From the IMG/VR virus record IMGVR_UViG_2579779052_000007: a stretch of 31,179 nt of DNA; one strand, 5' to 3'. The position numbers were made by a program, and so were the translations under genes. This DNA is from a virus (Duplodnaviria; Heunggongvirae; Uroviricota; Caudoviricetes). The notes below the pieces were generated by a model. The model searched no databases and was not told the DNA's origin. It saw nothing but the letters and a program-made list of their open reading frames with translations. Positions within the stretch are counted from its first letter, which is position 1, and every line of letters begins with the position of its first letter. Positions 1-30,479 of this stretch are shown piece by piece.

Positions 1-260
1 GCATCCAACGCCATTCATGGCCATATCAATGATTTTCTGGTGCGTACCGGGTTGAGAAGCGGTGTAAGTGAACTGCAGTTGCCATGTTTTACGGCAGTGA
101 GAGCAGAGATAGCGCTGATGTCCGGCAGTGCTTTTGCCGTTACGCACCACCCCGTCAGTAGCTGAACAGGAGGGACAGCTGATAGAAACAGAAGCCACTG
201 GAGCACCTCAAAAACACCATCATACACTAAATCAGTAAGTTGGCAGCATCACCTGGTGAG

Positions 261-680
261 CTATGATGCGTTTTGTGCTTTCTTTTTACGGATTTCTTCG
301 TAGATCATATTGTAATACTGTTTTTTCTCTTCAAGAGTTTTTAATAATTTATCCGCTTCACTTTCTGGCAGTTCGTCTAAGAGATCTAAAAAAATACGTT
401 GTCGTGGCGTTAGAACCCTTGTTTCATAACTGGAGGCTGTGTTCGTTGATGATGAAACGATACCATCCATCCATCCCCGGGGTAACCCAAAGGACTCTTC
501 GATAATCTCCACCATATCATCAGCGATCCGTTTTTTTCCCTTTTTCCCCTCTGGGTACAACATTCTTGATACATAAGAAGGCTCGCGCCCGATCTTTCTG
601 GCCACGTTAACCGCTTTACCATCGCATTTCTCATCACGAATTTTGATGAGTTGCTGTCGTCTAAATTCATATTTGTCCAT
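261..680 (-). CDS. Phage repressor-like HTH DNA-binding protein (CI/RacR/DicA-like)
   Basis: 139-aa ORF with an N-terminal HTH-like segment (KAVNVARKIGREPSYVSRM); divergent from a Cro-like gene across an operator-bearing intergenic region. Confidence 0.6.
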   Translation of the reverse strand: MDKYEFRRQQLIKIRDEKCDGKAVNVARKIGREPSYVSRMLYPEGKKGKKRIADDMVEIIEESFGLPRGWMDGIVSSSTNTASSYETRVLTPRQRIFLDLLDELPESEADKLLKTLEEKKQYYNMIYEEIRKKKAQNAS

Positions 681-716
681 AGGTAAATAATAGATGCGAT
701 TACCGCAAGGTAAACA

Positions 717-756
717 ACCTGTGGGTATTGACTTTTGTTTACCTGTGGGTATTCTT
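717..756 (+). promoter_or_regulatory. Operator/promoter region between repressor and cro-like gene
   Basis: Two direct copies of ACCTGTGGGTAT (717-728 and 741-752); -35-like TTGACT at 728-733 and -10-like TATTCT at 750-755 with a 16-nt spacer; AAGGAG RBS precedes the ATG at 781. Confidence 0.4.
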
Positions 757-780
757 TGCTGTGTTTACTAAGGAGTAGCT

Positions 781-1062
781 ATGGAAGAATTAAGAATATT
801 TCTCAATTCTCTTTCGTCAGATGAACAGCGTATGTTTGCATGCGAGTGTGGTACCAGCATCGGTTATCTAAGAAAGGCATTGAGTAAAGGTCAAGTGTTA
901 GGGGCATCGTTATGTGTCCTTATTGAGCGAGCCAGTAATGGTGAAGTTACACGTCAGCAACTAAGGCCTTTTGATTGGATGAATATTTGGCCCGAGCTGG
1001 AAGATACCAAAACGTTAACACAACCACTTTCTAGGAGCTTGATTCATGAAAATCAAGCATGA
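781..1062 (+). CDS. Cro-like / YdaS-family HTH regulator
   Basis: 93-aa ORF divergent from the repressor gene, with an AAGGAG RBS; position and size match the Cro/YdaS slot of Rac-type immunity regions. Confidence 0.6.
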   Translation: MEELRIFLNSLSSDEQRMFACECGTSIGYLRKALSKGQVLGASLCVLIERASNGEVTRQQLRPFDWMNIWPELEDTKTLTQPLSRSLIHENQA

Positions 1063-1471
1063 ACACATCCGCATGGCGATGAATGCCTGGGCGCGTCCTG
1101 ATGGCGAAAAAGTTCCAGCAGCTGGAATAACCCAGGCTTATTTTGAGTTGGGTATGACGTTCCCGGAACTGTATGACGACAGCCATCCGGAAGCCCTGGC
1201 TCGCAATACCCAGAAAATTTTCCGCTGGGTAGAGAAAGACACCCCTGATGCTGTTGAAAAAATGCAGGCTCTGTTACCGGCGATCGAAAAGGCGATGCCG
1301 CCTTTGCTGGTGGCCCGTATGCGCAGCCACAGTTCTGAATATTACCGTGAGATCGTCGAACGGAGGGATCGGCTGGTGAAGGATGTCGATGATTTTGTTG
1401 CGTCAGCGGTTGTTTTGTATGACCAGATGAATCGCGGCGGCCCGGCAGGGAATGCTGTGGTGATGCACTAA
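1046..1471 (+). CDS. YdaT-like protein (CII functional analogue family)
   Basis: 141-aa ORF immediately downstream of and overlapping the Cro-like gene; AGGAG RBS; synteny with racR-ydaS-ydaT. Confidence 0.5.
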   Translation: MKIKHEHIRMAMNAWARPDGEKVPAAGITQAYFELGMTFPELYDDSHPEALARNTQKIFRWVEKDTPDAVEKMQALLPAIEKAMPPLLVARMRSHSSEYYREIVERRDRLVKDVDDFVASAVVLYDQMNRGGPAGNAVVMH

Positions 1472-1493
1472 AAGCACGGTGTTCGGGGGTTTT

Positions 1494-2456
1494 ATGAGCA
1501 GCAAGCTTCATGGTCTTGTCTGGGAAGGGTGCGCCTTCACCGGCATGATCTTATCCAGGGTGGCGGTTATGGCCCGTCTTGCAGACTACAGCAATGACGA
1601 GGGCGTGTCATGGCCTGCCATTGAAACTATCCGGCGTCAGATCGGTGCAAGAAGTGAATCCACAGTGAAATCGGCTATTGCAGAACTGGCGAAAGAGGGC
1701 TGGCTGACGAAGGAAGAGCGTAAGGTCGGTGGGCGTAATGTAAGCAATATCTATCGGCTTAATGTGGAAAAACTCGAAGCAGCTGCGGCGGCGGCGCGTG
1801 AGTCATATAAACCGAAAAGAAAAATTAGCCCGGCAAAAAATGACCCGTTAACAGTTGACCCGTCAAATATTGACCCCTCAACGGTTGACCCGTCAAATTT
1901 TGATGGATCAACTGTTGATAAAAAACTGCCGATTAGGGGGGCGATGATTGACCCCGATCCGTCAGTATTAAAACCTGATCCGTCAGATAAAAGATCTTCT
2001 TGTCCGGACGCTTCGCAACCGGACCCGCAGACGGCTGAACAGGATTTTTTAACCCGACACCCTGACGCGGTTGTGTTCAGTGCGAAAAAACGCCAGTGGG
2101 GAAGTCAGGAAGATTTGGTGTGCGCACAGTGGATCTGGGGACGAATCGTGAGTCTTTACGAGCAGGCGGCCAGCTATGATGGCGAGATCACTAGACCGAA
2201 AGAACCCAACTGGACAGCATGGGCCAATGACGTTCGCACAATGCGGATGCTGGATGGCAGAACTCACAGACAAATTTGTGAAATGTTTGGGCGTCTCCAG
2301 CGGGATTCGTTCTGGGTAAAAAACATCATGAGTCCGGCAAAACTCCGGGAAAAATGGGATGAACTGGTTATCCGCCTGGGGCGTTCGCCTGCGCAGCGTT
2401 GCGTGAATCACATTTCTGAACCGGACACTGAAATACCGCCGGGATTCAGGGGGTGA
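1494..2456 (+). CDS. Replication initiator, lambda O-like (HTH N-terminus, iterons inside the gene)
   Basis: ATG at 1494 preferred over the in-frame GTG at 1479; N-terminal winged-helix-like region; tandem iterons embedded at 1840-1915; followed by a DnaC-like gene. Confidence 0.7.
   Translation: MSSKLHGLVWEGCAFTGMILSRVAVMARLADYSNDEGVSWPAIETIRRQIGARSESTVKSAIAELAKEGWLTKEERKVGGRNVSNIYRLNVEKLEAAAAAARESYKPKRKISPAKNDPLTVDPSNIDPSTVDPSNFDGSTVDKKLPIRGAMIDPDPSVLKPDPSDKRSSCPDASQPDPQTAEQDFLTRHPDAVVFSAKKRQWGSQEDLVCAQWIWGRIVSLYEQAASYDGEITRPKEPNWTAWANDVRTMRMLDGRTHRQICEMFGRLQRDSFWVKNIMSPAKLREKWDELVIRLGRSPAQRCVNHISEPDTEIPPGFRG
1840..1915 (+). repeat. Origin iterons: about five tandem 15-bp repeats built on palindromic TTGACCCGTCAA
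   Basis: TGACCCGTTAACAG / TTGACCCGTCAAATA / TTGACCCCTCAACGG / TTGACCCGTCAAATT / TTGATGGATCAACTG in register; further TGATCCGTCAG repeats and an A-rich stretch follow to about 1995. Confidence 0.6.
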
Positions 2457-2462
2457 CGTGTC

Positions 2463-3209
2463 ATGAAAAACATTGCGGCAGTTGGGGTTCTTGAACGTAT
2501 TCGCAGACTTGCACCACAGGGGTCGGTTCCACCGTACCGGACGGTGGAGGAGTGGCGGGAATGGCAACTTGCTGAAGGACGAAAACGCAGCGAGGAGATT
2601 AACCGCCAGAATCGCCAGTTGCGGGTGGAAAAAATCCTGAATCGTTCGGGCATCCAGCCTCTGCACAGCAAATGCTCGTTTGCAAATTATCAGGTGCAGA
2701 ACGACGGGCAAAAATACGCGCTGAGCCAGGCCAAATCCATAGCTGACGAACTGATGACCGGGTGCACGAATTTTGTGTTCAGCGGTAAAACCGGCACCGG
2801 GAAAAATCACCTTGCAGCGGCGATGGGCAACCGGCTGATGGTGAAGGGGCGCAGCGTGATTATCGTCACCGTGTCTGACGTCATGAGCGTGTTGCATGAC
2901 AGCTACGACAACGGCAAATCCGGGGAAAAATTTTTACAGGAGCTTTGCGGGGTTGATTTGCTGGTCCTGGATGAAATAGGCGTTCAGCGGGAGACGAAAA
3001 ACGAGCAGGTGGTATTGCACCAGATAATTGATCGCCGGACAGCATCACTGTGCAGTGTCGGGATGTTAACAAACCTGAATCATGCCGCAATGAGTACGCT
3101 TCTTGGTGAGAGGATTATGGACCGCATGACCATGAACGGTGGTCGATGGGTGACGTTTAACTGGGATAGCTGGCGTCCAAATGTCAGCAATATGAGGGTT
3201 GTGAAGTAA
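2463..3209 (+). CDS. DnaC-like replicative helicase loader (IstB-like AAA+ ATPase; lambda P analogue)
   Basis: Walker A GKTGTGKNHLAAA and Walker B LLVLDEIG motifs; start codon 7 nt after the O-like stop; GGGGGTGA RBS. Confidence 0.8.
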   Translation: MKNIAAVGVLERIRRLAPQGSVPPYRTVEEWREWQLAEGRKRSEEINRQNRQLRVEKILNRSGIQPLHSKCSFANYQVQNDGQKYALSQAKSIADELMTGCTNFVFSGKTGTGKNHLAAAMGNRLMVKGRSVIIVTVSDVMSVLHDSYDNGKSGEKFLQELCGVDLLVLDEIGVQRETKNEQVVLHQIIDRRTASLCSVGMLTNLNHAAMSTLLGERIMDRMTMNGGRWVTFNWDSWRPNVSNMRVVK

Positions 3210-3230
3210 TTTTGTCCGGAGGAAATTTTA

Positions 3231-4001
3231 ATGGAAACCGTATCTGACGCACTGAAAGCACTGAAAAAAGCCTCTTCACATGTGGTGGCAGCTCGCCTTG
3301 GAATCAGTCGTGAAGAGGCTGTCAACGAGCTGTGGGAACTCAAAAGAAAAGGCGTCGTTGATAAAACTGGTCACACCTGGTTTCTGGCTGGCGAAGGTGA
3401 ATCCCGGGTAACCGAAGAGCGGCCAGTAAAATCTGAAGCACAGGATATGCTGACCGGGGAGGTCGAACAAAAAGTTACCGCAGACATGATGATTGAGTTT
3501 ATCGGTCAGGATGGGGCTAAAACGTGTGAGGAACTGGCGGGGAAGTTCGGTGTCAGTACTCGCAAGGTTGCTTCCACGCTGGCGGTGGTAACCGCAACGG
3601 GGCGGCTGGCACGCGTTAATCAGAACGGTAAATTTCGTTACTGCATGCCGGGCGATAATTTACCAGCAGAGCCGAAAGCCGCGCTGGTAACGGAAAGTGA
3701 TGGTAAGGCCTTTCCTCAGCCAGCAGGTGCTGCGTTACCAGTCCGGGAAGCCGCAACACAGGAAGAAATTAAAACAGAAACTGTGGCGGACATTGTGCAG
3801 CCGTTGCCATCGTTTACCGAAACGCAAGCAGATGAGCTGATTTTTCCGTCCCTTCGCAGGGCAAACCTGGCGCTGCGCAGGGCGAAAAGTGATGTTCAGA
3901 AGTGGGAGCGAGTCTGCGCCGCGCTGCGGGAGCTGAACAAGCACCGGGATATTGTTCGACAGATTACTGATTCTTCCCGCCGTGTTGTATCGGAAAAGTG
4001 A
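3231..4001 (+). CDS. Hypothetical phage protein
   Basis: 256-aa ORF with a GGAGG RBS in the early operon; no motif recognised. Confidence 0.4.
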   Translation: METVSDALKALKKASSHVVAARLGISREEAVNELWELKRKGVVDKTGHTWFLAGEGESRVTEERPVKSEAQDMLTGEVEQKVTADMMIEFIGQDGAKTCEELAGKFGVSTRKVASTLAVVTATGRLARVNQNGKFRYCMPGDNLPAEPKAALVTESDGKAFPQPAGAALPVREAATQEEIKTETVADIVQPLPSFTETQADELIFPSLRRANLALRRAKSDVQKWERVCAALRELNKHRDIVRQITDSSRRVVSEK

Positions 4002-4016
4002 TTGCCGGAGGCGCTT

Positions 4017-4442
4017 ATGGCAAAAGTATTTACACAAGAAGAGCGGGAAAAAATTAAAGGGCAGGTTGTTGAACTTGTACGTCTGAGCGGTCGCGAGACG
4101 TTGCGGCAACTGGAAGCCAGGACAGGTGCGACAAGATATCTGATGAGTGTTCTCGCCAGAGAGCTGGTTGCCAGTGGCGATGTATACAACTCTGGTTACG
4201 GGTTATTCCCGTCTGAACAGGCGCGTAAGGACTGGCAAAATGCTCGCAAAAAACTCTCAAGGGCAAAGGTGAAGAAACCTGCAGTGGTTGATCCGGACCT
4301 TATCTGGTCGTTACCAGACGGCGAAATACGCCGCTACGACAGGCGCCTGAATATAATCTGTCGCGAGTGCCGGAAGAGCGAAGCTATGCAGCGTGTACTG
4401 GCATTTTATCAAGGAAATGTTAGGTATTTTAGACGTTACTAG
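4017..4442 (+). CDS. Hypothetical phage protein
   Basis: GGAGG RBS before the ATG at 4017 (the track ORF begins at an upstream TTG at 4002); basic C-terminus. Confidence 0.4.
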   Translation: MAKVFTQEEREKIKGQVVELVRLSGRETLRQLEARTGATRYLMSVLARELVASGDVYNSGYGLFPSEQARKDWQNARKKLSRAKVKKPAVVDPDLIWSLPDGEIRRYDRRLNIICRECRKSEAMQRVLAFYQGNVRYFRRY

Positions 4443-4595
4443 ATTAAAGAGCATTAGTTCAGATGTGAATTGACATTTTCATGGCGCAGGGTAGAGCCAG
4501 CGTGGTTGTCCGCTTTGCGTCAAAACCAGATATTACCAGATTTAGACATATATTCCCGATAGACCTGCTCTGATGCTACACTCTGTGCTATTTTC

Positions 4596-5282
4596 ATGAC
4601 CCCAATAAAAATATTTATGACTATTGCTGATTTCAAACGGCCTAAATTGGAGCTCCCAAACGGGGCAAACAAACTACTACTGCACTCTTGCTGTGCTCCA
4701 TGTTCCGGTGAAGTGATGGAGGCGCTTCAGGCCTCGGGAATCGACTACACCATCTTTTTCTACAACCCGAACATTCATCCTCAGAAAGAGTATTTAATTC
4801 GTAAGGATGAAAATATTCGCTTTGCTGAACAACACGGCGTGCCGTTTATCGATGCTGATTACGACACCGACAACTGGTTTGAACGTGCCAAAGGAATGGA
4901 ATGGGAGCCTGAGAGGGGGATCCGTTGTACCATGTGTTTTGACATGCGTTTTGAGCGGACAGCGTTGTACGCTGCTGAAAATGGTTTCAGTGTGATCAGC
5001 AGTTCACTGGGCATTTCACGCTGGAAAAATATGCAGCAGGTTAACGAGTGTGGGCGGCGAGCTGTTGCGCATTATCCGGGTATGGTGTACTGGGATTATA
5101 ACTGGCGCAAGCAGGGCGGCTCGTCCCGTATGATTGAAATCAGCAAGCGCGAAAAATTCTATCAGCAGGAATATTGTGGCTGTGTGTATTCTCTGCGCGA
5201 TACCAATCTACACCGCAAATCTCAGGGACGCCCTCTTATCAAAATTGGCCAACTCCACTACGGAAAAGAAGAGAAGGAGTGA
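4596..5282 (+). CDS. queH: Epoxyqueuosine reductase QueH-like protein (DUF208 family)
   Basis: N-terminal [11 protein letters not shown] and C-terminal EYCGCVYS cysteine motifs as remembered for QueH; about 228 aa; stand-alone gene with its own upstream intergenic region. Confidence 0.6.
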
Positions 5283-5519
5283 TTTTATGGATCACCTTTC
5301 TGATTGATTTCATATTGGCGAGGTGACGTGAGTTAAGTAGAATGGCTGCGGGTGCTTGAGGCTATCTGTCTCAGGCATGAACACTGAAAGGCAGATAGAG
5401 AAAAGCCCCAGTTAACATTTCGCGTCCTGCAAGACGCTTAACATTAATCTGAGGCCCAATCTATGTCTCACAAATGTAGGTTAGCCTCTTACGTGCCGAA
5501 AGGCAAGGGGAAGCAGGCT

Positions 5520-5675
5520 ATGAAGCAGCAAAAGGCGATGTTAATCGCCCTGATCGTCATCTGTTTAACCGTCATAGTGACGGCACTGGTAACGAGGAAA
5601 GACCTCTGCGAGGTACGACTCCGAACCGGCCAGACGGAGGTCGCTGTCTTCACAGCTTACGAACCTGAGGAGTAA
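5520..5675 (+). CDS. hokD: Hok/Gef-family type I toxin (HokD/RelF-like)
   Basis: 51-aa translation MKQQKAMLIALIVICLTVIVTALVTRKDLCEVRLRTGQTEVAVFTAYEPEE matches the Hok/Gef signature; an in-frame upstream start at 5463 gives a mok-like leader ORF. Confidence 0.75.
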   Translation: MKQQKAMLIALIVICLTVIVTALVTRKDLCEVRLRTGQTEVAVFTAYEPEE

Positions 5676-5743
5676 GAGACCTGGCGGGGGAGAAATCCCT
5701 CGCCACCTCTGATGTGTCAGGCATCCTCAACGCACCCGCACTT

Positions 5744-5771
5744 AACCCGCTTCGGCGGGTTTTGTTTTTTT
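5744..5771 (+). terminator. Rho-independent terminator after the hok gene
   Basis: AACCCGC-TTCG-GCGGGTT hairpin followed by a T-rich run. Confidence 0.6.
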
Positions 5772-5842
5772 CTGGCATTCTGGTTTACAATTCGCACGTC
5801 AGCCTGAACACCTGACACCTGCTGCGCCAGCAGAGAAAACAG

Positions 5843-6115
5843 ATGGCGCACAAAACCAAATTTCACAATTCTGATACCGACCTTGCCATCCGGCATGGGC
5901 GGCGTTCACACGCATTTAAAACCGACTGGTACCAACACCCACCATGTACTGAAGAACAGGCCGAATGGCTAATTCATAACTACCGCAGACGCGGATACGA
6001 GATTAAGAAAGCCCTCAGCCTCGATTATCGTCACTGGATAATCTCCGTCAGGCTTCCTTACTCTGAACGCCCACCGCGTCCGTCCCGCACATTCCAGCAA
6101 CGCATCTGGAGGTAA
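5843..6115 (+). CDS. Hypothetical small protein (in the position of rem in Qin)
   Basis: 90-aa ORF whose stop is 1 nt before the next gene's GTG; its 3' end supplies a GGAGG RBS. Confidence 0.35.
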   Translation: MAHKTKFHNSDTDLAIRHGRRSHAFKTDWYQHPPCTEEQAEWLIHNYRRRGYEIKKALSLDYRHWIISVRLPYSERPPRPSRTFQQRIWR

Positions 6116-6116
6116 C

Positions 6117-7172
6117 GTGCGGGTATTACTTCGACCTGTTCTGGTACCGGAACTCGGGCTGGTGATCGTTAAGCCGGGCCGTGAATCCATGCCGGTATTC
6201 CACAATACCCGGGTACTGGTGGAGCCGGAACCGAAAAGCATGCGTAATCTGCCGTCCGGGGTCGTTCCTGCCGTTCGCCAGCCGCTGGCGGAGGATAAAT
6301 CATTACTGCCATTTTTCAGCGACGAACGAGTGATTCGTGCTGCTGGTGGCGCTGGCGCATTGTCTGACTGGTTACTGCGCCATGTTAAATCCTGCCAGTG
6401 GCCACACGGCGATTATCACCACAGTGAAACCGTCATTCACCGTTATGGTACCGGCGCAATGGTGTTGTGCTGGCACTGCGACAACCAGCTGCGCGACCAG
6501 ACCTCCGAATCACTCGGGCAACTTGCTCACCAAAACCTGTCTGCATGGATGATTGACGTCATACGCCATGCAATGAATGGCTCGCAGGAACGGGAATTAT
6601 CGCTGGCTGAATTATCCTGGTGGGCGGTCCGCAATCAGGTGGCGGACGCGCTACCGGAAGCGGTATTACGTCGTTCGCTGGGGTTGCGTGCGGAAAAAAT
6701 CCGCTCAATGTACCGTGAAAGCGACATCGTACCGGGAGAGCAGACCGCCACCAGCATACTGAAGCAGCGCACAAAAAATCTTGCGCCGCTGCCTCACGCC
6801 CACCAGCAAACCCCGCCACAGGAAAAGACGGTGGTCAGCATTGCCGTTGATCCGGAGTCACCGGCTCAGTATCTCCAGCGCCAGAAATCACAACGGGAAG
6901 AGATGCCTGTATACACGCGTTGGGTAAAAACGCAGAAATGCATGACGTGTGGCAATCAGGCAGATGATCCGCATCACATCATTGGTCATGGACTGGGAGG
7001 GATGGGAACAAAGGCTGATGATTTGTTTGTTATTCCGCTGTGCCGTAAATGCCATAGCGAACTACACGCCGGGGTAAAAGATTTTGAAGAAAAACACGGC
7101 AGCCAGCTGTTGTTGCTGATTCGTTTTTTAATGCACGCGAGAAATTCGGGTGTTCTGAAGTGGAAAGCATAA
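6117..7172 (+). CDS. DUF968 (YdfU-like) nin-region protein with a C-terminal Cys/His cluster
   Basis: 351-aa ORF with GTG start; C-terminal CMTCGN...HHIIGH...CRKCHSELH; synteny hok-rem-ydfU-rusA-Q as in Qin. Confidence 0.5.
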   Translation: MRVLLRPVLVPELGLVIVKPGRESMPVFHNTRVLVEPEPKSMRNLPSGVVPAVRQPLAEDKSLLPFFSDERVIRAAGGAGALSDWLLRHVKSCQWPHGDYHHSETVIHRYGTGAMVLCWHCDNQLRDQTSESLGQLAHQNLSAWMIDVIRHAMNGSQERELSLAELSWWAVRNQVADALPEAVLRRSLGLRAEKIRSMYRESDIVPGEQTATSILKQRTKNLAPLPHAHQQTPPQEKTVVSIAVDPESPAQYLQRQKSQREEMPVYTRWVKTQKCMTCGNQADDPHHIIGHGLGGMGTKADDLFVIPLCRKCHSELHAGVKDFEEKHGSQLLLLIRFLMHARNSGVLKWKA

Positions 7173-7538
7173 ATGACTGAACGCATAGAATTTGTTTTGC
7201 CTTACCCGCCAACGGTGAACACTTACTGGCGACGTCGTGGCAGCACATATTTTGTATCAAAAGTCGGTGAGCGTTATCGCCGTGATGTGGCGCTTATTGT
7301 TCGCCAGCAGCAACTGAAATTAAACCTGTCCGGAAGGCCGGCAATAGAAATTATTGCAGAGCCACCGGATAAGCGTCGTCGTGACCTGGACAATATCCTG
7401 AAGGCACCACTGGATGTACTGACGCATGCGGGGCTGCTCATAGACGACGAGCAGTTTGATGAAATTAATATTGTGCGCGGTCAGCTTGTTCCTGGTGGGC
7501 GGTTGGGGATAAAAATCACAGAACTGGAGTACGCATGA
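7173..7538 (+). CDS. rusA: Holliday junction resolvase RusA
   Basis: 121 aa with RusA-like motifs (RRRDLDN, catalytic Asp region, GGRL); positioned just before the Q-like gene. Confidence 0.8.
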   Translation: MTERIEFVLPYPPTVNTYWRRRGSTYFVSKVGERYRRDVALIVRQQQLKLNLSGRPAIEIIAEPPDKRRRDLDNILKAPLDVLTHAGLLIDDEQFDEINIVRGQLVPGGRLGIKITELEYA

Positions 7539-8224
7539 ATAACCAGTATTTACAGTTTGTTCGTGAGCAACTCATGATTGCCACCGCCGATTTGAGTGGA
7601 TCAACAAAAGGGCAGCTTGAGGCCTGGCAGGAGAATGCCATGTTTGATACAGGGCGTTACAGGCGTAAAAAAATCCGGTACCGCGATGAAGTGACTGGAA
7701 AAATGATAACGCGGGATAATCCACCAATCCCGGGAAAGCAATCGCTGGCGAAGGGGGTGTCAATTCCTCTCGTCAGTCCGGTTGAGTTTTCGACATCATC
7801 GTGGCGGCGGGCTGTTCTGTCTCTTGAAGAACATCATAAAGCCTGGTTGTTGTGGTGTTACAGCGGGAGTATTTGTTGGGAATATCAGATCGCGATAACG
7901 CAGTGGGTGTGGAATGAATTTAAAACCCGGTACGGCACCAGAAAAATTGCAGGGAAAACGCAGGAGCGCGTGAAGAAGTTGATCTGGCTGGCGGCACAGG
8001 ATGTCAGAGGATGGATTACCGGGTGTGAGGTCTACCAGAGACAGGAGCTTGCCAGACTGTGTGGAGTTAAGCCTGATAACTGGAGCCATAATTATGCGAA
8101 CTACTGGCGTGAGATGTGCGATATTTTTAAGAGTCTCGATAGAGAATCTGTGATTTGCACCGTGAAAATAAGAGCGCAACAAAAAGCGACTTTTTCACGA
8201 CGAGATATTGCAAAAGTCAATTAA
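7535..8224 (+). CDS. Putative late antiterminator Q-like protein
   Basis: 229-aa ORF overlapping the rusA stop (ATGA); position after rusA and before a short terminated leader; not lambda-Q-like by eye, so family unconfirmed. Confidence 0.45.
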   Translation: MNNQYLQFVREQLMIATADLSGSTKGQLEAWQENAMFDTGRYRRKKIRYRDEVTGKMITRDNPPIPGKQSLAKGVSIPLVSPVEFSTSSWRRAVLSLEEHHKAWLLWCYSGSICWEYQIAITQWVWNEFKTRYGTRKIAGKTQERVKKLIWLAAQDVRGWITGCEVYQRQELARLCGVKPDNWSHNYANYWREMCDIFKSLDRESVICTVKIRAQQKATFSRRDIAKVN

Positions 8225-8292
8225 ATAGCGTACGTTTCGTATAAATCTGATATTTTGCCGATTTTGTACGCGATGGCAAAGTAAGAAAAAAA

Positions 8293-8315
8293 CTGCCGTC
8301 AGGCGGTTTTTTTTT
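8293..8315 (+). terminator. Rho-independent terminator about 70 nt after Q (tR'-like)
   Basis: CTGCC-GTCA-GGCGG hairpin followed by T9. Confidence 0.45.
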
Positions 8316-8437
8316 ATGCCCAAAATCGCGTCAGTACAGTAAACACGCTGGTGGTTGCGAATACGGGTCTTTCAGCTTGCTGGCTTTTTCGACAAGAGTT
8401 ATTGGTATGTCACGTTAACCGGAAAAAGGAAAAAGAC

Positions 8438-8635
8438 ATGCTAAAACAGCAGGATATGACAGAAACCGCCAGAGTGGTGTTTAATGAATTAAGCGTTACC
8501 GAACCGGCGACAGTCGGGGAGATAGCGCAGAATACTTACCTTTCACGCGAACGCTGCCAGTTAATACTGACCCAGCTGGTTATGGCGGGTCTGGCAGACT
8601 ATCAGTTCGGTTGTTACAGACGCCTTCAGTCCTGA
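8438..8635 (+). CDS. Hypothetical small protein
   Basis: 65-aa ORF from an internal ATG of the track ORF 8351-8635; followed by a hairpin plus T-run at about 8620-8648. Confidence 0.3.
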   Translation: MLKQQDMTETARVVFNELSVTEPATVGEIAQNTYLSRERCQLILTQLVMAGLADYQFGCYRRLQS

Positions 8636-8785
8636 AGGCTTTTTTATTTGTGGTAAATGGGCGGCTGGTGGGTGTTAGGGGCACCCACCAGCCATCTGCT
8701 CATGCGTTGGGTTCACAAGCAAACCTCAGGCCCACTGCTTTGCGCAAAAGCAGAATGAGCCTATCAGAGACAGGCTTAATGATCC

Positions 8786-9835
8786 ATGCTTAATACTGTA
8801 AAAATATCCAGTTGTGAGTTAATCAACGCCGACTGCCTGGAATTTATCCGGTCGTTACCCGAAAATTCTGTTGACCTGATAGTCACGGACCCGCCGTACT
8901 TTAAAGTGAAGCCTGAGGGCTGGGATAACCAGTGGAAGGGCGACGATGATTACCTGAAGTGGCTGGACCAGTGTCTGGCGCAGTTCTGGCGGGTGCTGAA
9001 ACCTGTCGGAAGTCTTTACCTGTTCTGTGGTCATCGCCTGGCATCTGATATCGAAATCATGATGCGTGAACGCTTCAGTGTGCTGAACCATATTATCTGG
9101 GCGAAGCCGTCCGGACGCTGGAACGGATGCAACAAGGAAAGCCTGCGGGCGTATTTCCCCGCCACAGAGCGCATTCTGTTCGCGGAACATTATCAGGGGC
9201 CGTATCGTCCGAAAGATGCCGGGTATGCGGCGAAGGGCAGTGCACTGAAACAGCATGTGATGGCCCCGCTGATTTCTTACTTTCGTGATGCGCGCGCTGC
9301 CCTGGGGATAACGGCAAAACAGATTGCAGATGCCACAGGAAAGAAAAACATGGTGTCGCACTGGTTCAGTGCCAGTCAGTGGCAGCTACCGAACGAAAGC
9401 GATTATCTGAAATTACAGTCGCTGTTTGCCCGGGTGGCAGAAGAGAAACATCAGCGCGGTGAACTGGAAAAGCCCCACCACCAGCTGGTGGATACGTATA
9501 CGTCACTGAACCGGCAGTATGTGGAGCTGCAGAGTGAATATAAGCATCTGCGGCGGTATTTTGGTGTGACGGCGCAGGTGCCGTACACGGATGTGTGGAC
9601 ACATAAACCGGTGCAGTTCTATCCCGGGAAACATCCGTGCGAAAAACCGGCAGAAATGCTGCAGCAGATAATCAGCGCAAGCAGTCGTCCGGGTGACCTG
9701 GTTGCAGATTTTTTTATGGGCTCAGGTTCAACGGTAAAAGCGGCACTGGCGCTTGGGCGTCGTGCGATTGGCGTTGAACTGGAGACCGGACGTTTTGAGC
9801 AGACAGTCAGGGAAGTTCAGGATTTAATCGTTTGA
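8786..9835 (+). CDS. Orphan DNA methyltransferase (N6-adenine/N4-cytosine family, DPPY motif)
   Basis: DPPY catalytic motif near the N-terminus (VTDPPYF) and a C-terminal AdoMet-binding-like FFMGSGST; no adjacent restriction endonuclease. Confidence 0.8.
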   Translation: MLNTVKISSCELINADCLEFIRSLPENSVDLIVTDPPYFKVKPEGWDNQWKGDDDYLKWLDQCLAQFWRVLKPVGSLYLFCGHRLASDIEIMMRERFSVLNHIIWAKPSGRWNGCNKESLRAYFPATERILFAEHYQGPYRPKDAGYAAKGSALKQHVMAPLISYFRDARAALGITAKQIADATGKKNMVSHWFSASQWQLPNESDYLKLQSLFARVAEEKHQRGELEKPHHQLVDTYTSLNRQYVELQSEYKHLRRYFGVTAQVPYTDVWTHKPVQFYPGKHPCEKPAEMLQQIISASSRPGDLVADFFMGSGSTVKAALALGRRAIGVELETGRFEQTVREVQDLIV

Positions 9836-9884
9836 AACGGATGAGATTGCAGAATTAATTACGCACCATTATTATTCTGCTCCC

Positions 9885-9960
9885 GGCCCTTTAGCTCAGT
9901 GGTGAGAGCGAGCGACTCATAATCGCCAGGTCGCTGGTTCAAATCCAGCAAGGGCCACCA
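9885..9960 (+). tRNA. ileZ: tRNA-Ile2 (anticodon CAU, lysidine type)
   Basis: 76 nt ending in CCA; anticodon loop CTCATAA; near-identical by eye to the remembered E. coli tRNA-Ile2. Confidence 0.8.
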
Positions 9961-9967
9961 TCACATA

Positions 9968-10044
9968 CCGCCATTAGCTCATCAGGAAAGAGCGCCAGCT
10001 TTCGAAGCTGGTTGCGCGGAGTTCGGGTCCCCGAAGGCGGTCCA
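9968..10044 (+). tRNA. argN: tRNA-Arg (anticodon UCG)
   Basis: 77 nt with CCA; D-arm AGCTCATCAGG...GAGC; anticodon loop TTTCGAA between a CCAGC/GCTGG stem. Confidence 0.65.
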
Positions 10045-10057
10045 TTATCTGTATCCT

Positions 10058-10134
10058 GCGTTGTTAGCTCAGCCGGACAGAGCAATTGCCTTCTAAGCAA
10101 TCGGTCACTGGTTCGAATCCAGTACAACGCGCCA
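10058..10134 (+). tRNA. argO: tRNA-Arg (anticodon UCU)
   Basis: 77 nt with CCA; anticodon loop CTTCTAA; T-loop GGTTCGAATCC; acceptor stem GCGTTGT/ACAACGC. Confidence 0.8.
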
Positions 10135-10149
10135 CACTTATTTTCCCTG

Positions 10150-10172
10150 GCTCGCTTTTGCGGGCTTTTTTT
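10150..10172 (+). terminator. Rho-independent terminator after the tRNA cluster
   Basis: GCTCGC-TTTT-GCGGGC hairpin followed by T7. Confidence 0.5.
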
Positions 10173-10178
10173 AAATGT

Positions 10179-10392
10179 CTCACAATTCAGGCGGTTGACT
10201 GTTGTCTGGTTTGCGGGGAGTTTGTTAAAAGAAACTGGCATGGTGAATCCCCCTGTGCGGAGGGGCAATCAGCGAGTAGGTATATGGGATAATCGCGGAT
10301 TCAGGTGCTGGTACTGAATTCACCGGGAGGCACCCAGCACCATGCAATGGCACATAGCGCCACTCTCCAGCCCCTCTCCGGAGGGGCTTTTC
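10179..10392 (+). ncRNA. Candidate small RNA / late-promoter-terminator unit, copy 1
   Basis: Conserved CTCACAATTCAG box, TTGACT at 10195-10200, flanking inverted repeat GCATGGTG (10238-10245) / CACCATGC (10338-10345), terminator CCCCTC-TCCG-GAGGGG plus T-run at 10371-10392; no convincing ORF. Confidence 0.35.
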
Positions 10393-10646
10393 TGTGCCGG
10401 ATACATCACAGTTTCTGGAACCTTAGGTACTACAGTATCAGTCAGGGTGCTATATTTTCAGATGTGATGAAAGCCTGTCAGCAGGCAGGGCGTATCGGAA
10501 ATGACCCAGTAGAGAAAACGTTGACTCAGATACCGGTGCTGAGTTACCGGGAAACCGGCATCACATGACCGCTATCCTTCCAGGCCCATCCGCTCCGGTG
10601 GGCCTTTTTACTGCAGAAAACAGGTTCCCCGTTAAATGCTATGTTG

Positions 10647-10880
10647 CTCACAATTCAGTAAGTTGACAGTTGCCTGTCAGACTGGGCATTTGTTAAAAAA
10701 ATTTCGCATGGTGAATCCCCCTGAGCGGAGGGGCGACTGGTGACGGTATAATCTCTGATTATCAAAACGAGAATGACGCGGGTTTAGTGGCACCGGGCTG
10801 AACTCACCGGGAGGCACCCGGCACCATGTGCATGATGATACAGATACGCGGCTTTAGCCCCTCTCCGGAGGGGTTTTCTT
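10647..10880 (+). ncRNA. Candidate small RNA / late-promoter-terminator unit, copy 2 (paralogue of 10179-10392)
   Basis: Same architecture: CTCACAATTCAG, TTGACA at 10663-10668, GCATGGTG (10706-10713) / CACCATG (10822-10828), TATAAT at 10747-10752, terminator at 10858-10880. Confidence 0.35.
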
Positions 10881-11108
10881 GTGGGCAAAAAAAGCCCGCG
10901 CTGGGAGACGCGGGCGGCAAGGAATAAACAATAAAACGTGAAGTAATATTTCAGCTGGCGAATAATATCCGACAGTAATCACTCTGCGCAATAGCGCGGC
11001 CTTTTTCGTATTGCGGGCTGTTGTCTCTCTTCTGCCATTGTCCTGTAACTTCCGGACTTCAGCCCGCTCCTCATTTTACTCACAATATTATCCCGGCCGG
11101 GAGGATTC

Positions 11109-12962
11109 ATGGCATTTAAACACTATGATGTTGTCAGGGCGGCGTCGCCGTCAGATCTTGCGGAAAAGCTGACACATAAACTGAAAGAGGGCTGGCAGCC
11201 GTTTGGTAGTCCGGTGGCCATAACCCCTTATACCCTGATGCAGGCGATTGCAGCAGAAGGTGATGTGGTCGTCAGTGGTGCAACTGAGCCGGAGTGGTAC
11301 TACGTCATCGTACTGGCCGGGCAGTCCAATGCCATGGCTTACGGTGAAGGGCTTCCGCTTCCGGATTCATACGATGCGCCCCATCCGCGCATTAAGCAAC
11401 TGGCCCGTCGTAACACAGTGACTCCCGGTGGTGAAGTATGCGTATTTAACGACATCATTCCTGCTGACCATTGTCTGCATGATGTTCAGGATATGAGTAC
11501 GATTAACCATCCCCGGGCTGACCTGAGCAAAGGGCAGTACGGCTGTGTCGGACAGGGCTTACATATTGCCAAAAAACTGCTTCCGTATATCCCTAATAAT
11601 GCGGGGATCCTGCTGGTACCATGCTGTCGTGGTGGTTCGGCATTCACCCAGGGCGCGGAGGGGACATTCAGTGCGGACACGGGGGCCAGCCAGGATTCGG
11701 CACGCTGGGGTGTGGGTAAACCGTTATATCAGGATCTGCTTTTCCGCACGAAGGCAGCATTGCAGAAAAACCCGAAAAACGTTTTGCTGGCGATATGCTG
11801 GATGCAGGGGGAATTCGATATGACGAATGCCAGTTACGCCCAGCAGCCAGCAGCATTTCTTGCAATGGTACAGCAGTTCCGTGCTGACCTTACCGGGCTG
11901 GCGGCGCAGTGCCATGGCGGCAGTGCTGCAGTTGTACCGTGGATTTGTGGCGACACGACGTATTACTGGCAAAACACATACGGCACACAGTATGACTCCG
12001 TCTACGGCGCGTACAAAAACAGGGAGAGCGACAACGTTTTCTTTGTGCCGTTCATGACCGACGGTAACGGCAACAACACGCCCACCAACTTACCGGCAGA
12101 AGACCCGGATATTGCTGATGCAGGTTATTACGGCGCGCAATCCCGTAGTAATGGTAATTGGGTATCGTCAAATCGTCCGACACATTTCAGTTCATGGGCG
12201 CGCAGGGGCATTATTTCGGATCGCCTGGCAACCGCTATTCTGAACGCAGTTGGTCGAACCAGCGCCTTCATCAGCGGTACCGCACCGGAGATTAAACCCT
12301 CGCCCGGCGGCGACACTCCATCGGGGCCGTCTGATGGTGACACATCCGTTCGTACAGTCTCCCTGCTGCCGACAGCCGGAGAGGCTGCTGCGCAGGGCTG
12401 GACCATCACCGGCGGCAGTGTTGCGCTGGAAGATGGTGTGTTTAAGGTTACCAAGCAGAGCAATAAAACCTGGTCCCTGATGCATCCGGTGGATGACGCA
12501 GTCTCCCTGCTGACACGGGGTGGCAGACTGAGCTGTAAGTTTCGACTGTCAGGCGCACTGACCAACAACCAGTTCGGTCTGGGAATTTATCTGTATACCG
12601 ATGTAGCGTTACCTGACGTCGTGGCGATGACCGGGACTGGTAACCCGTTCCTGATGTCGTTCTTCACCCAGACCACAGACGGCAAACTGAATCTGATGCA
12701 TCACAAGAAAGCAGGAAACACAAAGTTGGGCGAGTTCGGGAATTACAGTAACGACTGGCAGACGCTGGAGCTGGTGTTCACCGCCAGCAGTGCCACGGTT
12801 ACTCCGAAACTGAATGGAGTGGCTGGCCCGGCATTCCAGGTCATAAAAGACAGTCTGACACTGGGGCTGAATGCACTGACGCTGACGGATATTACCAAAA
12901 ATGCAACGTATGGCGTTGAGATAGAAAGTCTGGTGCTGGAAATAAATAGTCCTGCAGCGTAA
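11109..12962 (+). CDS. nanS-p: NanS-p-type sialate O-acetylesterase (SGNH/SASA domain with C-terminal carbohydrate-binding-like region)
   Basis: 617 aa; GGAGG RBS; VIVLAGQSNAMAY motif of the SGNH/SASA esterase family; sits downstream of the phage tRNA cluster as the esterase gene does in Stx phages. Confidence 0.75.
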   Translation: MAFKHYDVVRAASPSDLAEKLTHKLKEGWQPFGSPVAITPYTLMQAIAAEGDVVVSGATEPEWYYVIVLAGQSNAMAYGEGLPLPDSYDAPHPRIKQLARRNTVTPGGEVCVFNDIIPADHCLHDVQDMSTINHPRADLSKGQYGCVGQGLHIAKKLLPYIPNNAGILLVPCCRGGSAFTQGAEGTFSADTGASQDSARWGVGKPLYQDLLFRTKAALQKNPKNVLLAICWMQGEFDMTNASYAQQPAAFLAMVQQFRADLTGLAAQCHGGSAAVVPWICGDTTYYWQNTYGTQYDSVYGAYKNRESDNVFFVPFMTDGNGNNTPTNLPAEDPDIADAGYYGAQSRSNGNWVSSNRPTHFSSWARRGIISDRLATAILNAVGRTSAFISGTAPEIKPSPGGDTPSGPSDGDTSVRTVSLLPTAGEAAAQGWTITGGSVALEDGVFKVTKQSNKTWSLMHPVDDAVSLLTRGGRLSCKFRLSGALTNNQFGLGIYLYTDVALPDVVAMTGTGNPFLMSFFTQTTDGKLNLMHHKKAGNTKLGEFGNYSNDWQTLELVFTASSATVTPKLNGVAGPAFQVIKDSLTLGLNALTLTDITKNATYGVEIESLVLEINSPAA

Positions 12963-12985
12963 GGAAGAACAGGAGAGCAAAACAG

Positions 12986-13453
12986 ATGCTTAAGACAAAC
13001 AGCCTCCGGAAGGGCATGATTCATGGGTGTCGCTGGTGTCAGGCCAACCCGGAAAAATTCACCATTTTCGTGGAGAGCGGCAACATTGAAACGACCGGAG
13101 AAACGCCCTCGTTTGTTTACCGCTATCAGATGGTGATGTTTGTCATGGATTACGCCGGGGAGCTGGACGACCTCACGCTGCCGCTACTGGCGTGGTTATC
13201 CGAAAATCAGCCGCAATTGTTGCTTAATCCGGAGCGTAATCAGGACATCAAATTCTCCGCCGTTATCAATGACGATGACAGCGCCGATCTCCTGTTTACG
13301 CTCCCTCTGCGGGAACGCGTTCGCATCACGCGCAGCAGTCAGGGGGCACCGCAGGCAGAACACCTGCAGGAGCCAAAACCCCGTCTGCCATCTTCCGAAG
13401 GCGACTGGTCGCATGTATTCCAGGATGTGACGTGGGGTGAAAGCGATGGATAA
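12986..13453 (+). CDS. R: P2 gpR-like tail completion protein
   Basis: 155 aa, the same length as P2 R, with recognisable similarity (LLAWL.ENQP segment); precedes an S-like gene. Confidence 0.65.
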   Translation: MLKTNSLRKGMIHGCRWCQANPEKFTIFVESGNIETTGETPSFVYRYQMVMFVMDYAGELDDLTLPLLAWLSENQPQLLLNPERNQDIKFSAVINDDDSADLLFTLPLRERVRITRSSQGAPQAEHLQEPKPRLPSSEGDWSHVFQDVTWGESDG

Positions 13454-14081
13454 GGCATTCACCCGCGTGGATGAAACCTTTGAGGCTATCCGCGACAGCC
13501 TGAATCAGCAGGCCATCAATAACATCGCCAGAAAGCTGGCACAGGATTTACGCCGCGCCCAGCAGGCGCGTATCCGGTCACAGAAAGCGCCGGACGGGAC
13601 CGCGTGGACACCACGCAGACGCCGCGTAACCCGGATACAGGAGCGCATTCGCTTTATCTGGAATAACGAAGCACGCACGCTGAAAAACTGGCATCACGAC
13701 ACGGGGAAATACGGGCGAACCATTACCGGGTGGGATGAGGATAAAAACAATATCCGCACGTTTTACCGGGATGACATCGACCGCTTTCTGGAAATACGCA
13801 CCCGGCGCATCAACCAGGACAGCACAAAGCGCGTCCCCATGTTCGTAAAACTGCGCACCGCCCGCTACCTGAAAGCCCGTGCAGATGCTTCCGGTGTGAC
13901 GGTGGGTTACAGCGGCGTGGCCGCACGTATTGCCCGCGTTCATCAGTTCGGTGAGCGCGATCAGGTTGCGCCGGGCATTTTCACCGATTACCCGGTACGT
14001 GAGCTGTTGGGCATCAGTCAGGCAGATGAACGCCTGATTTATAACACGGTGCTGGGCCGGATTGCGGAGGCTGTACGGTGA
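13446..14081 (+). CDS. S: P2 gpS-like tail completion / virion morphogenesis protein
   Basis: Overlaps the R stop and the V start (GTGA); start is either ATG 13446 or GTG 13437. Confidence 0.65.
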   Translation: MDKAFTRVDETFEAIRDSLNQQAINNIARKLAQDLRRAQQARIRSQKAPDGTAWTPRRRRVTRIQERIRFIWNNEARTLKNWHHDTGKYGRTITGWDEDKNNIRTFYRDDIDRFLEIRTRRINQDSTKRVPMFVKLRTARYLKARADASGVTVGYSGVAARIARVHQFGERDQVAPGIFTDYPVRELLGISQADERLIYNTVLGRIAEAVR

Positions 14082-14659
14082 GCGCAGAACTCATGCGACT
14101 GCTGAGCAACATCATCCGCACTGGGATCATCTCTGAAGTTGATGAGAAGTCCTGGTGCGTGCGCGTTCGCAGCGGCGAACTGGAAACAGGCTGGTTGCGC
14201 TGGAACACCACGCGCGCGGGAGCCTTCAATGTGTGGCTGCCGCCATCACCCGGCGAACAGGTGGTAATTGCCTGCATTGGCGGCAACCCGGAAACCGCCA
14301 TGATAATTGGCAGCCTGTGGAGTGATGCCAATCCGGCCCCCGGCAAAAGCCTGAAAGAAATCGTGGTCAGCGCGCCGGATGGCGCGGTGTTCCGCTACGA
14401 CGCGGACGCAGGCGCACTGAGCGCCAGCGGCATGAAAACGGCCACCCTGCAGGCATCCGTCAGTGTGACACTGGACACGCCCGTCGTGGAATGCACAGAC
14501 CTTCTGAGAACGGCGACGCTTGACGTCACAAAAGGGGGAAAGATGAGCGGCAATATCACGCACAGCGGCGGCAATTTCACCTCAAACGGCATCACAGTGC
14601 ATACGCATAAACACGGTGGCGTGAAAGGTGGCAGCGATTCGACAGGAGGCCCGCAGTGA
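14078..14659 (+). CDS. V: Baseplate spike protein, P2 gpV-like
   Basis: GTG start overlapping the S stop; GGAGG RBS; glycine-rich C-terminus typical of gpV spikes. Confidence 0.8.
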   Translation: MSAELMRLLSNIIRTGIISEVDEKSWCVRVRSGELETGWLRWNTTRAGAFNVWLPPSPGEQVVIACIGGNPETAMIIGSLWSDANPAPGKSLKEIVVSAPDGAVFRYDADAGALSASGMKTATLQASVSVTLDTPVVECTDLLRTATLDVTKGGKMSGNITHSGGNFTSNGITVHTHKHGGVKGGSDSTGGPQ

Positions 14660-15006
14660 CAACCCGCTACACAGGAATGAACCCGGACGGAACGGGAAAC
14701 CTGAACGATATGGAGCATCTGAAACAGTCAGTCAGGGACATCCTGACCACCCCGCTGGCAAGCCGGGTTATGCGACGGGAATATGGCAGCCTTGTGCCCG
14801 ATTTAATTGACGAACCCATGAATAACACCACTCGTCTGCAATGCATGAGTGCTGCCGTGATTGCGCTGACACGATGGGAACCCCGCATTGCCCTGGACGC
14901 CATCGACGTTGTCTGGAAGGCAGGAGGCCGCGCCGGGGTGACGCTGTCGGGCACTGTCATGCAGACCATGCAGAATGTTGAATTAACCATCACGCTGAGG
15001 GAGTAA
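14656..15006 (+). CDS. W: Baseplate protein, P2 gpW-like (gp25 family)
   Basis: 116 aa; GTG start overlapping the V stop; AGGAGG RBS; P2 gene order. Confidence 0.8.
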   Translation: MTTRYTGMNPDGTGNLNDMEHLKQSVRDILTTPLASRVMRREYGSLVPDLIDEPMNNTTRLQCMSAAVIALTRWEPRIALDAIDVVWKAGGRAGVTLSGTVMQTMQNVELTITLRE

Positions 15007-15009
15007 ATC

Positions 15010-16429: not shown

Positions 16430-16431
16430 GC

Positions 16432-19142: not shown

Positions 19143-19185
19143 AGAGAAAAAGCCATCGATTGAAATATAGATGGCTTTATGTACT

Positions 19186-19758: not shown

Positions 19759-19914
19759 GATAATCTCCTTAATTATTATTTCAGACCACACATATTATAA
19801 GGTTAAGAGATTATAAAATCCTGTTGTTTGTTATTCAAAAACAATTTTCTGAGAAGGACATACAACAGCAAGTCGCCAGTCACCTTCATCAGGAAATTGG
19901 CGACATACGTTAAA

Positions 19915-20409: not shown

Positions 20410-20415
20410 GACTCC

Positions 20416-30403: not shown

Positions 30404-30479
<76 letters not shown>

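Follow-up and report, generated by a model that had tools for sequence, protein, structure and literature searches.

The segment described here covers positions 5283 to 5771 of the window, by which we mean the whole 31,179-nt stretch of viral DNA that was analysed. Its first base is the one past the queH stop codon and its last base is the end of a run of T residues; these limits enclose the whole unit, the conserved part proper extending from about 5315/5336 to 5771. The plus strand carries a promoter, the mok leader ORF, the hok toxin gene and an intrinsic terminator, and the minus strand carries a putative gene for the antisense RNA Sok. The hok/sok family has been studied since the 1980s, and all of its sequence-level hallmarks that can be checked in silico are present at 5283–5771.

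The toxin gene and its leader

The hok gene occupies positions 5520–5675 (+), from the ATG at 5520 to the TAA at 5673–5675, and in the ORF list its product is a protein of 51 aa, MKQQKAMLIALIVICLTVIVTALVTRKDLCEVRLRTGQTEVAVFTAYEPEE. The sequence-only reading had taken the product starting at 5520 for a Hok/Gef toxin, and this assignment is borne out by the match to the Pfam family HOK_GEF (PF01848; 80.6 bits, E = 6.3e-23, cutoff 22) and by the identity of 50/51 residues with HokD of E. coli K-12, from which this HokD allele differs by the substitution I34L. Hok/Gef toxins are small proteins of about 50 aa that have an N-terminal transmembrane helix and conserved Cys residues, and both Cys15 and Cys30 are found in the product. 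The score obtained with the NCBIfam subfamily Hok HMM (49 bits) is under its cutoff of 73; since the Hok models of this collection are narrow equivalog/subfamily models, a sub-cutoff score is no argument against membership.

An in-frame mok-like leader had also been proposed from position 5463, and indeed the ORF list contains there a mok ORF of 70 codons (5463–5675, +), which is in the hok frame and shares its stop codon. The mok ATG lies in frame at codon -19 in 22/38 homologous loci, the R1-type one included, while in some relatives with a TTGACC -35 (e.g., loci L011 and L012) mok is shifted by one base. The notion that mok of R1 is out of frame with hok was discarded, because the R1-type plasmid locus that was retrieved has it in frame, at codon -19. 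The mok Shine-Dalgarno sequence, GAGG at 5451–5454 (+), is located 8 nt 5′ of the mok ATG and is near-invariant in the 38-locus alignment; in R1, the GAGG motif of the mok Shine-Dalgarno was defined by mutation (PMC9841398).

The Shine-Dalgarno region of hok itself, AAGGGGAAG at 5505–5513 (+), is a variant. In the alignments most relatives read AAGGAGAAG, and G5509 turns the usual GGAG into GGGG, a change common to locus L004 and to the 100%-identical E. coli loci. In addition, the G residues of this region pair with the CCCC of the ucb element (see below) in the full-length MFE structure. Together, G5509 and the pairing with ucb could lower the output of Hok.

Sense mRNA and putative antisense RNA

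The promoter of the hok/mok mRNA, found by a sigma-70 scan, is positioned at 5315–5343 (+) and consists of a -35 hexamer TTGGCG (5315–5320), a 17-nt spacer and a -10 hexamer TAGAAT (5338–5343). It is the sole sigma-70-like site detected by the consensus scan in 5200–5900, and its -10 column is kept as TAGAAT, TATAAT or TATATT over the 38 homologous loci. The -10 ends 7 nt 5′ of the start of the Rfam model RF01794, which matches 5350–5525 (+) with 120.5 bits (E = 3e-27, gathering score 59) and whose start is the hok mRNA 5′ end also on the R1-type plasmid locus. On the basis of the Rfam start, the BLAST limits and the fold, the full-length mok-hok mRNA is predicted to extend from 5350 to 5768 (+), i.e., for about 419 nt, with +1 at the G of GGGUGCUUGAGG and the 3′ end at the terminator. 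In BLAST comparisons with 47 related loci (from Escherichia, Shigella, Kluyvera, Citrobacter, Pantoea, Photorhabdus, and Erwinia), the homologous stretch begins at 5336–5350 and stops at about 5737–5744; these starts and ends are consistent across loci and thus define the limits of the unit. The strong terminator noticed earlier by eye was recovered by the terminator scan at 5744–5771 (+), as a 7-bp stem, AACCCGC-TTCG-GCGGGTT (5744–5761), followed by TTGTTTTTTT up to 5771.

The mRNA 5350–5768 folds with an MFE of -173.7 kcal/mol, well below that of shuffled sequences (z = -6.7). In this structure the 5′ end of the molecule, corresponding to the translational activator element tac (GGGUGCUUGAGG, 5350–5361, +), forms 12 pairs with the fold-back inhibitory element fbi (CCTCAACGCACCC / CCUCAACGCACCC) located at 5725–5737 (+). 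The tac/fbi helix is 86.7% paired in the 38-locus alignment, as compared to 31–55% when the partner is slid by 1–3 columns. Furthermore, the helix contains a compensatory exchange, with U-A in 22 loci and C-G in 12, at the very position of tac that is the only one bulged in the alternative tac/ucb helix; this covariation spans Escherichia, Kluyvera, Photorhabdus, Pantoea and the R1-type plasmid.

When the RNA is cut at 5716, so that fbi is gone, the predicted fold switches (z = -5.4). In the structure of 5350–5716, nucleotides 5350–5357 of tac pair with the ucb or anti-Shine-Dalgarno box AAGCCCC (5403–5409, +), and the mok Shine-Dalgarno GAGGC (5451–5455) pairs with the dcb element GCCUC (5484–5488, +), making the predicted Sok-target hairpin; the mok AUG comes to lie inside an enclosed stem, and a hairpin at 5682–5705 is found near the new 3′ end. 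This arrangement agrees with the consensus structure of RF01794, which contains both the tac/ucb helix and, as helix 3, the SDmok/dcb one. The tac/ucb helix is 96% paired over the 38 loci, a figure that is weakly informative since the positions are mostly invariant, and the five G-C/A-U pairs of SDmok/dcb are retained in 33–37 of 38 loci. An analogous closed-to-open switch of the mRNA has been described for hok of R1 (PMC9841398). The 3′-UTR stem-loop at 5682–5705 (+), with 10 bp and a conserved GGCGGGG...CCCCGCC, is expected to protect the 3′ end of the mRNA once this has been processed to its translatable form; mutations of the equivalent 3′ hairpin of R1 abolish toxicity via RNase sensitivity (PMC9841398). 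Two further candidates in this part of the locus were rejected. The sub-threshold Rfam matches in the 3′-UTR (isrK, 27 bits vs. a gathering score of 50; rsmX; CRISPR direct-repeat models) are hairpin look-alikes, and the 59-aa "hypothetical protein" annotated by PGAP at 5717–5896 (-), which overlaps fbi and the terminator and has no Pfam match, is probably no gene.

A functional locus would need a sok-type RNA on the minus strand, which the sequence-only reading had called for without being able to delimit it by eye. The generic sigma-70/terminator scan of 5200–5900 returned no minus-strand promoter or terminator for Sok, and the promoter could instead be placed, by homology to the experimentally validated promoter of sokW from prophage Sp5, at 5478–5506 (-). 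This candidate consists of a -35 TTGCCT (5506 to 5501), a 17-nt spacer and a -10 TAACCT (5483 to 5478). It agrees with the sigma-70 consensus at 7/12 positions, which is why it is not listed by the strict scan and was placed by homology. Both hexamers and the spacer length of 17 nt are conserved in 33/38 aligned loci; at the same positions, the R1-type locus has TTGCGC-17-TATCCT and the relatives have TTGCCT or TTGAC(C)-17-TAATCT or TAACCT, with an invariant GTAAGAGGC in the spacer of the aligned relatives. The published hokW probe YO-597, which covers 30 nt of the validated sokW promoter region, is 30/30 identical to window positions 5479–5508 (-), and the promoter-less sokW mutation introduced with primers YO-421/422 alters TAGGTTA, that is window 5477–5483, the Sok -10. 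This mutation unleashes the toxicity of HokW (PMC8621323).

In Sp5, sokW is complementary to the hokW 5′-UTR over 71 nt (PMC8621323). The stretch corresponding to Sok aligns with the hokW locus of Stx2 phage I without indels and with an identity of 63/71, and therefore Sok is expected to extend from about 5471 to about 5401. Promoter position, fold and homology to sokW thus point to a Sok gene of about 71 nt at 5401–5471 (-), its ends being defined to within 2–5 nt, which starts 7 nt downstream of the -10 and is complementary to the mok Shine-Dalgarno and AUG. The candidate RNA from 5471 to 5396 folds with -30 kcal/mol (z = -4.96) into a free 5′ tail of 14 nt, the sequence of which is complementary to the region around the mok AUG, a long hairpin bearing the anti-Shine-Dalgarno sequence, and a UUUUCUCU tail. 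Sok is thus probably transcribed from the minus strand. The Rfam match named "sok" was considered as the antitoxin gene and ruled out: it lies on the plus strand and runs from the hok mRNA +1 to the hok ATG, as it likewise does on the R1-type plasmid. The family of this name models the sense-strand hok leader, so that its matches give the wrong strand for the antitoxin.

Prophage context and occurrence

Positions 254–12947 of the window are collinear with an E. coli chromosome, at 98.5% identity. The gene order is repressor-type regulators, YdaT, an HTH replication protein, a DnaC-like ATPase, DUF1627, DUF977, QueH and hokD, followed on the 3′ side by a 90-aa ORF, DUF968, RusA, Q, a methyltransferase, three tRNAs and an esterase. 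The hok locus is therefore situated, as had been proposed, in the nin-type region of a lambdoid prophage, between the replication genes and DUF968-RusA-Q. The synteny with the Qin prophage claimed at the same time holds in part. In K-12 the order is relB-relE-hokD-rem-ydfU(DUF968)-ydfT(Q): DUF968 and Q are found downstream of hokD in both, whereas in Qin rusA is absent and rem is present. The small ORF 5843–6115 (90 aa) was tried as Qin Rem and rejected, as it gives no BLASTP alignment with it and no Pfam or NCBIfam match; its DNA aligns to the Qin rem-ydfU intergenic region.

Collinearity with a P2-like prophage that adjoins leuZ-cysT-glyW sets in at about 11288 and takes in the genes for baseplate, tail fibre, sheath, tube, tape measure, gpD and ogr. 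According to the BLAST limits, which were used alone because a fixed-offset identity scan was confounded by indels, the lambdoid and P2-like contexts overlap inside the esterase gene. Downstream of Q, the window is devoid of lambdoid genes for lysis or for the head. A second, divergent Hok/Gef locus, at 28882–29168, comes next after the ogr-like gene of the P2-like prophage and contains a 46-aa ORF (29028–29168; Pfam HOK_GEF, 30.1 bits vs. a cutoff of 22) and a leader (28882–29038) with a sub-threshold RF01794 match (46.7 bits, E = 5e-9).

Many complete E. coli chromosomes contain loci with 100% identity to the 489-bp stretch, in which the CDS is named "type I toxin-antitoxin system toxin HokD" (RefSeq product WP_000813262.1); identical copies are annotated in hundreds of E. 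coli genomes, and matches were obtained in 4938/5426 genomes, with a median of two places in each. The temperate coliphages HannyBb, Evi, mEp460 and Tritos have copies with about 95% identity, under the names MokW or HokD, and Stx phages have copies with 88–93% identity. The locus is therefore already known, its exact sequence being in RefSeq as hokD and the related prophage system hokW-sokW having been characterised; moreover, the hok family has been catalogued at scale (preprint). The genome annotation marks the toxin CDS alone, leaving mok, Sok and the RNA elements unannotated.

The Pfam, Rfam, terminator and fold signals are jointly beyond chance. That the ORF and the hairpins arose by chance, or belong to a mis-assembled or disrupted pseudogene, is extremely improbable considering the Pfam and Rfam E-values (6e-23 and 3e-27), the fold z-scores of -5 to -7, the intact frame and the 100% identical copies in independent complete genomes. 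With high confidence, we read the locus as a type I toxin-antitoxin cassette, hok/mok/sok, that belongs to the hokD/hokW lineage, lacks none of the structural elements and resides in the nin-type region of a lambdoid E. coli prophage; its mechanism would follow the R1 and Sp5 paradigms.

Proposed mechanism, possible roles and known relatives

From the elements described above and from these paradigms, we infer how Sok transcription, mRNA processing, toxicity and biological role could be connected at this locus. The promoter at 5315–5343 would be constitutive and make a stable mRNA of about 419 nt, in which the pairing of the 5′ tac with the 3′ fbi closes the molecule to both ribosomes and Sok. 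Slow 3′ trimming to the hairpin 5682–5705 would remove fbi, upon which tac would switch to ucb and the mok Shine-Dalgarno/AUG region would be offered in the GAGGC/GCCUC hairpin. As long as the locus is kept, the short-lived Sok of about 71 nt (5471 to 5401, -) would bind the mok region through its free 5′ tail and block the translation of mok, to which that of hok would be coupled; the Sok-mRNA duplex would then be cut by RNase III. Sok synthesis would stop upon loss of the DNA or, as for hokW-sokW, upon prophage induction. Once Sok is gone, mok and hok would be translated, and the 51-aa Hok would enter the inner membrane and collapse it.

The closest precedent is hokW-sokW, a working type I toxin-antitoxin system in which sokW neutralises HokW (PMC8621323). 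Upon induction with mitomycin C, sokW disappears and HokW appears in a RecA-dependent manner; growth arrest occurs about 40 min earlier with the locus than without it, and phage release is about halved in its absence (PMC8621323). By analogy, the most likely role of the locus described here would be similar to that of hokW, namely to assist in lysis and in the release of phage upon induction, perhaps with some stabilisation of the prophage in addition. Given that the window contains no lambdoid late genes, this helper role may not operate in the present strain.

The latter circumstance would exclude release as a role in this strain, and it speaks for the possibility that the locus serves mainly for addiction, stabilising a possibly defective prophage through post-segregational killing rather than promoting the release of phage. 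Post-segregational killing is the founding function of hok/sok of R1, whose tac/fbi/Sok architecture is the same as that in the window, and hok genes are about four-fold enriched in prophages (preprint). On the other hand, neither chromosomal nor prophage hok loci, those of the hokD/hokW type included, are known to mediate such killing (preprint), and deletion of hokW-sokW left normal growth unaffected, the phenotype measured being that on induction (PMC8621323). We therefore regard addiction as a plausible but less probable main role.

Alternatively, the main role could be defence against superinfecting lytic phages, which would deplete Sok by shutting off host transcription and so bring about abortive infection. 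Prophages often carry defence genes and, as cited in PMC8621323, hok/sok of R1 on a high-copy plasmid cut the plating of T4 by 42% and plaque size by about 85%. However, this effect was seen only at high copy number and for R1 rather than for the hokD/hokW type, and hok is not enriched near defence systems (preprint), which makes a defensive role quite improbable.

The end of the coding region contains one more element that could influence the potency of the toxin. The TACG motif at 5658–5661 (+), formed by the Tyr47 codon TAC (5658–5660) and G5661, is, on the basis of its conservation, a candidate TadA site for A-to-I editing of A5659, which would convert Tyr47 to Cys. The sequence TTACGAA around this codon, which represents the motif recognised by TadA, is invariant in 38/38 aligned loci, and the motif is predicted to be in the loop of a small local hairpin. 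Editing by TadA to Cys at the homologous position has been observed in the K-12 hokC, hokD, and hokE mRNAs, with a level of 6% for hokD (PMC12214031; preprint 10.1101/2025.08.07.668861). The same editing may modulate the potency of Hok here.

If Tyr47 needs to be edited to Cys, a level as low as the 6% of K-12 hokD mRNA, together with the weakening of the canonical GGAG of the hok Shine-Dalgarno by G5509, would be in keeping with a locus that is intact in sequence but functionally silent, its RNAs being made, Hok never reaching a sufficient level and the genes persisting by hitch-hiking with the prophage. The prophage does appear rearranged and, according to the summary of Pedersen and Gerdes given in a preprint, chromosomal hokA, hokB and hokC gave neither post-segregational killing nor activation by rifampicin. 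Nevertheless, we consider silence rather unlikely: every regulatory element is kept without a disabling change, unlike in K-12 hokD with its missing 5′ control region, the allele is widespread in identical form, hokW-sokW, a close relative, works in the prophage to which it is native (PMC8621323), and both HokD, when overexpressed (preprint), and HokW (PMC8621323) are toxic upon induction.

As for its relation to the systems already known, the locus has the architecture of hok/sok (parB) of plasmid R1, with tac, ucb, the Sok hairpin, SDmok/dcb, fbi, and TACG. In both, the mok ATG is 19 codons upstream of hok and the Sok promoter has its 17-nt spacer in the same place. The two differ in that the R1 locus is plasmid-borne while that of the window is on a chromosomal prophage, and the Hok of the R1-type plasmid is only 42% identical to the window toxin. 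Furthermore, the predicted Sok hairpin of the window has, compared to R1, an extra GC-rich apical insert of about 16–20 nt (GCGUCCUGCAAGACGC, 5422–5437), which is common to a subset of chromosomal and prophage loci.

The hokD gene (relF) of the cryptic Qin prophage of K-12 is far closer in its coding and 3′ parts, with 155/156 identical positions in the CDS (99.4%), 60/62 in the 3′-UTR (97%) and 36/39 in the terminator (92%). However, the homology exists only from window position 5506 onward. The region corresponding to 5315–5505 is absent from Qin, where relBE is found upstream in place of the hok promoter, tac, ucb, the start of mok, the Sok gene and the Sok -10; the loss of canonical components from K-12 hokD has been attributed to rearrangement (PMC12214031). 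Judging from this alignment, K-12 hokD is a 5′-truncated relic and the window copy is the complete form, which illustrates what the ancestral hokD locus would have looked like.

The control region, in turn, resembles that of hokW-sokW from Sakai prophage 5 (Sp5, an Stx2 phage) of E. coli O157:H7, also a hok locus of a lambdoid prophage with a toxin of 51 aa (Takada et al. 2021, PMC8621323). Compared to the hokW locus of Stx2 phage I, the identity is 91% in the leader, 34/35 in the Sok promoter, whose -35, spacer and -10 are unchanged, and 94% in the CDS. The differences concern G5509 in the hok Shine-Dalgarno; the C-terminus of the toxin, …VFTAYEPEE in the window and …VFVDYESEK in HokW; and the sequence 3′ of fbi, which is unrelated, the window having its own hairpin and T-run terminator. 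The 8/71 positions that differ in Sok are mostly in the 5′ tail and the mok-start region, and cross-repression between the window Sok and sokW is therefore uncertain. These comparisons indicate that the locus is a close relative or a recombinant of hokW-sokW and a different allele, one in which a control region of hokW type is apparently joined to a toxin and 3′ end of hokD type. It is conceivable, though we would give the idea little weight, that the allele is a natural recombinant whose own Sok 5′ tail and GGAG-to-GGGG change insulate it from cross-repression by other Sok RNAs of the same cell, including that of the divergent hok locus 23 kb away in the adjoining P2-like prophage; if so, the output of Hok could be retuned, and the paralogous hok loci of prophages would each work as a switch specific to its own element and independent of the others. 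For experimental comparison, the hokW-sokW system of Sp5 is preferable to K-12 Qin hokD, because the latter is devoid of the 5′ control region.

Prophage contexts of the window

The window is a junction of two prophage contexts, each recognized by collinearity. The first, at positions 254–12947, corresponds to a lambdoid prophage (98.5% identity); the second, at positions 11288–31179, corresponds to a P2-like prophage together with the host leuZ-cysT-glyW-pgsA region (98.8%). The two stretches overlap at approximately 11288–12947, in an esterase gene annotated as either SASA family or DUF6645, and the position of the overlap within this common gene suggests that the prophages recombined through it. 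Downstream of the lambdoid gene Q, lambdoid lysis or head genes are absent from the window.

Prophage cargo and a second hok-type locus

The hok cassette is adjoined on its upstream side, within the lambdoid prophage, by a gene for the epoxyqueuosine reductase QueH (4596–5282, plus strand; Pfam E = 1e-65); this tRNA-modification enzyme is prophage cargo. A few kb downstream of queH, and 3′ of Q and a DNA methyltransferase gene, lies a phage tRNA cluster (9885–10134, plus strand) consisting of Arg-TCG, Arg-TCT and one CAT-anticodon tRNA, the last being assigned to Met by ARAGORN but to Ile by PGAP. The cluster is followed on the same strand by two copies of the small RNA STnc100 (10209–10399 and 10677–10886), at the site that corresponds to the stx position in Stx phages. 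An additional RNA, Rfam IS009, is matched over its full length at 18907–19105 (plus strand, 192 bits), inside the P2-like tail-fibre region.

A divergent second hok-type locus was observed at 28882–29168 (plus strand), directly 3′ of the Ogr/Delta zinc-finger gene (28577–28837) at the P2-like prophage end. Its 46-aa ORF (29028–29168, plus strand; product MSQKSLTAITFCVTVILIIWMLHGSLCEIRMSFWGAEFAAFLQCKQ) matches Pfam HOK_GEF with 30.1 bits against a cutoff of 22, and the homologue is named 'Hok/Gef family protein' in RefSeq. The ORF is preceded by a sub-threshold Rfam match to the RF01794 leader (28882–29038, 46.7 bits, E = 5e-9).

Annotations overlying the main hok locus

The Rfam family RF01794 bears the title 'sok antitoxin', but its match in the main locus (5350–5525, plus strand) lies on the sense strand and extends between the hok mRNA +1 and the hok ATG. 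The same span, likewise on the sense strand, is matched in the R1-type plasmid locus (L003, 232–403, plus strand). Therefore, these hits show where the hok leader lies, not which strand encodes the Sok RNA. On the opposite strand, RefSeq places a 59-aa 'hypothetical protein' at 5717–5896, spanning fbi, the hok terminator and the first part of the gene that follows. A Pfam search with this ORF returned no match, and it is probably an annotation over-call.

Sequence variation in the hok leader

At position 5509 the window carries G, where most relatives have A. With this base the hok Shine-Dalgarno reads GGGG instead of GGAG, and the mok codon specifies Gly in place of Glu; in the predicted full-length MFE structure, the GGGG is paired with CCCC of ucb. 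Further upstream, at 5422–5437 (plus strand), the main locus and a subset of its relatives share a GC-rich insert of approximately 16–20 nt relative to the Rfam consensus (GCGUCCUGCAAGACGC), which makes both the Sok hairpin and its mRNA counterpart longer at the apex. The segment likewise counts as an insert relative to the R1, hokC and Photorhabdus loci.
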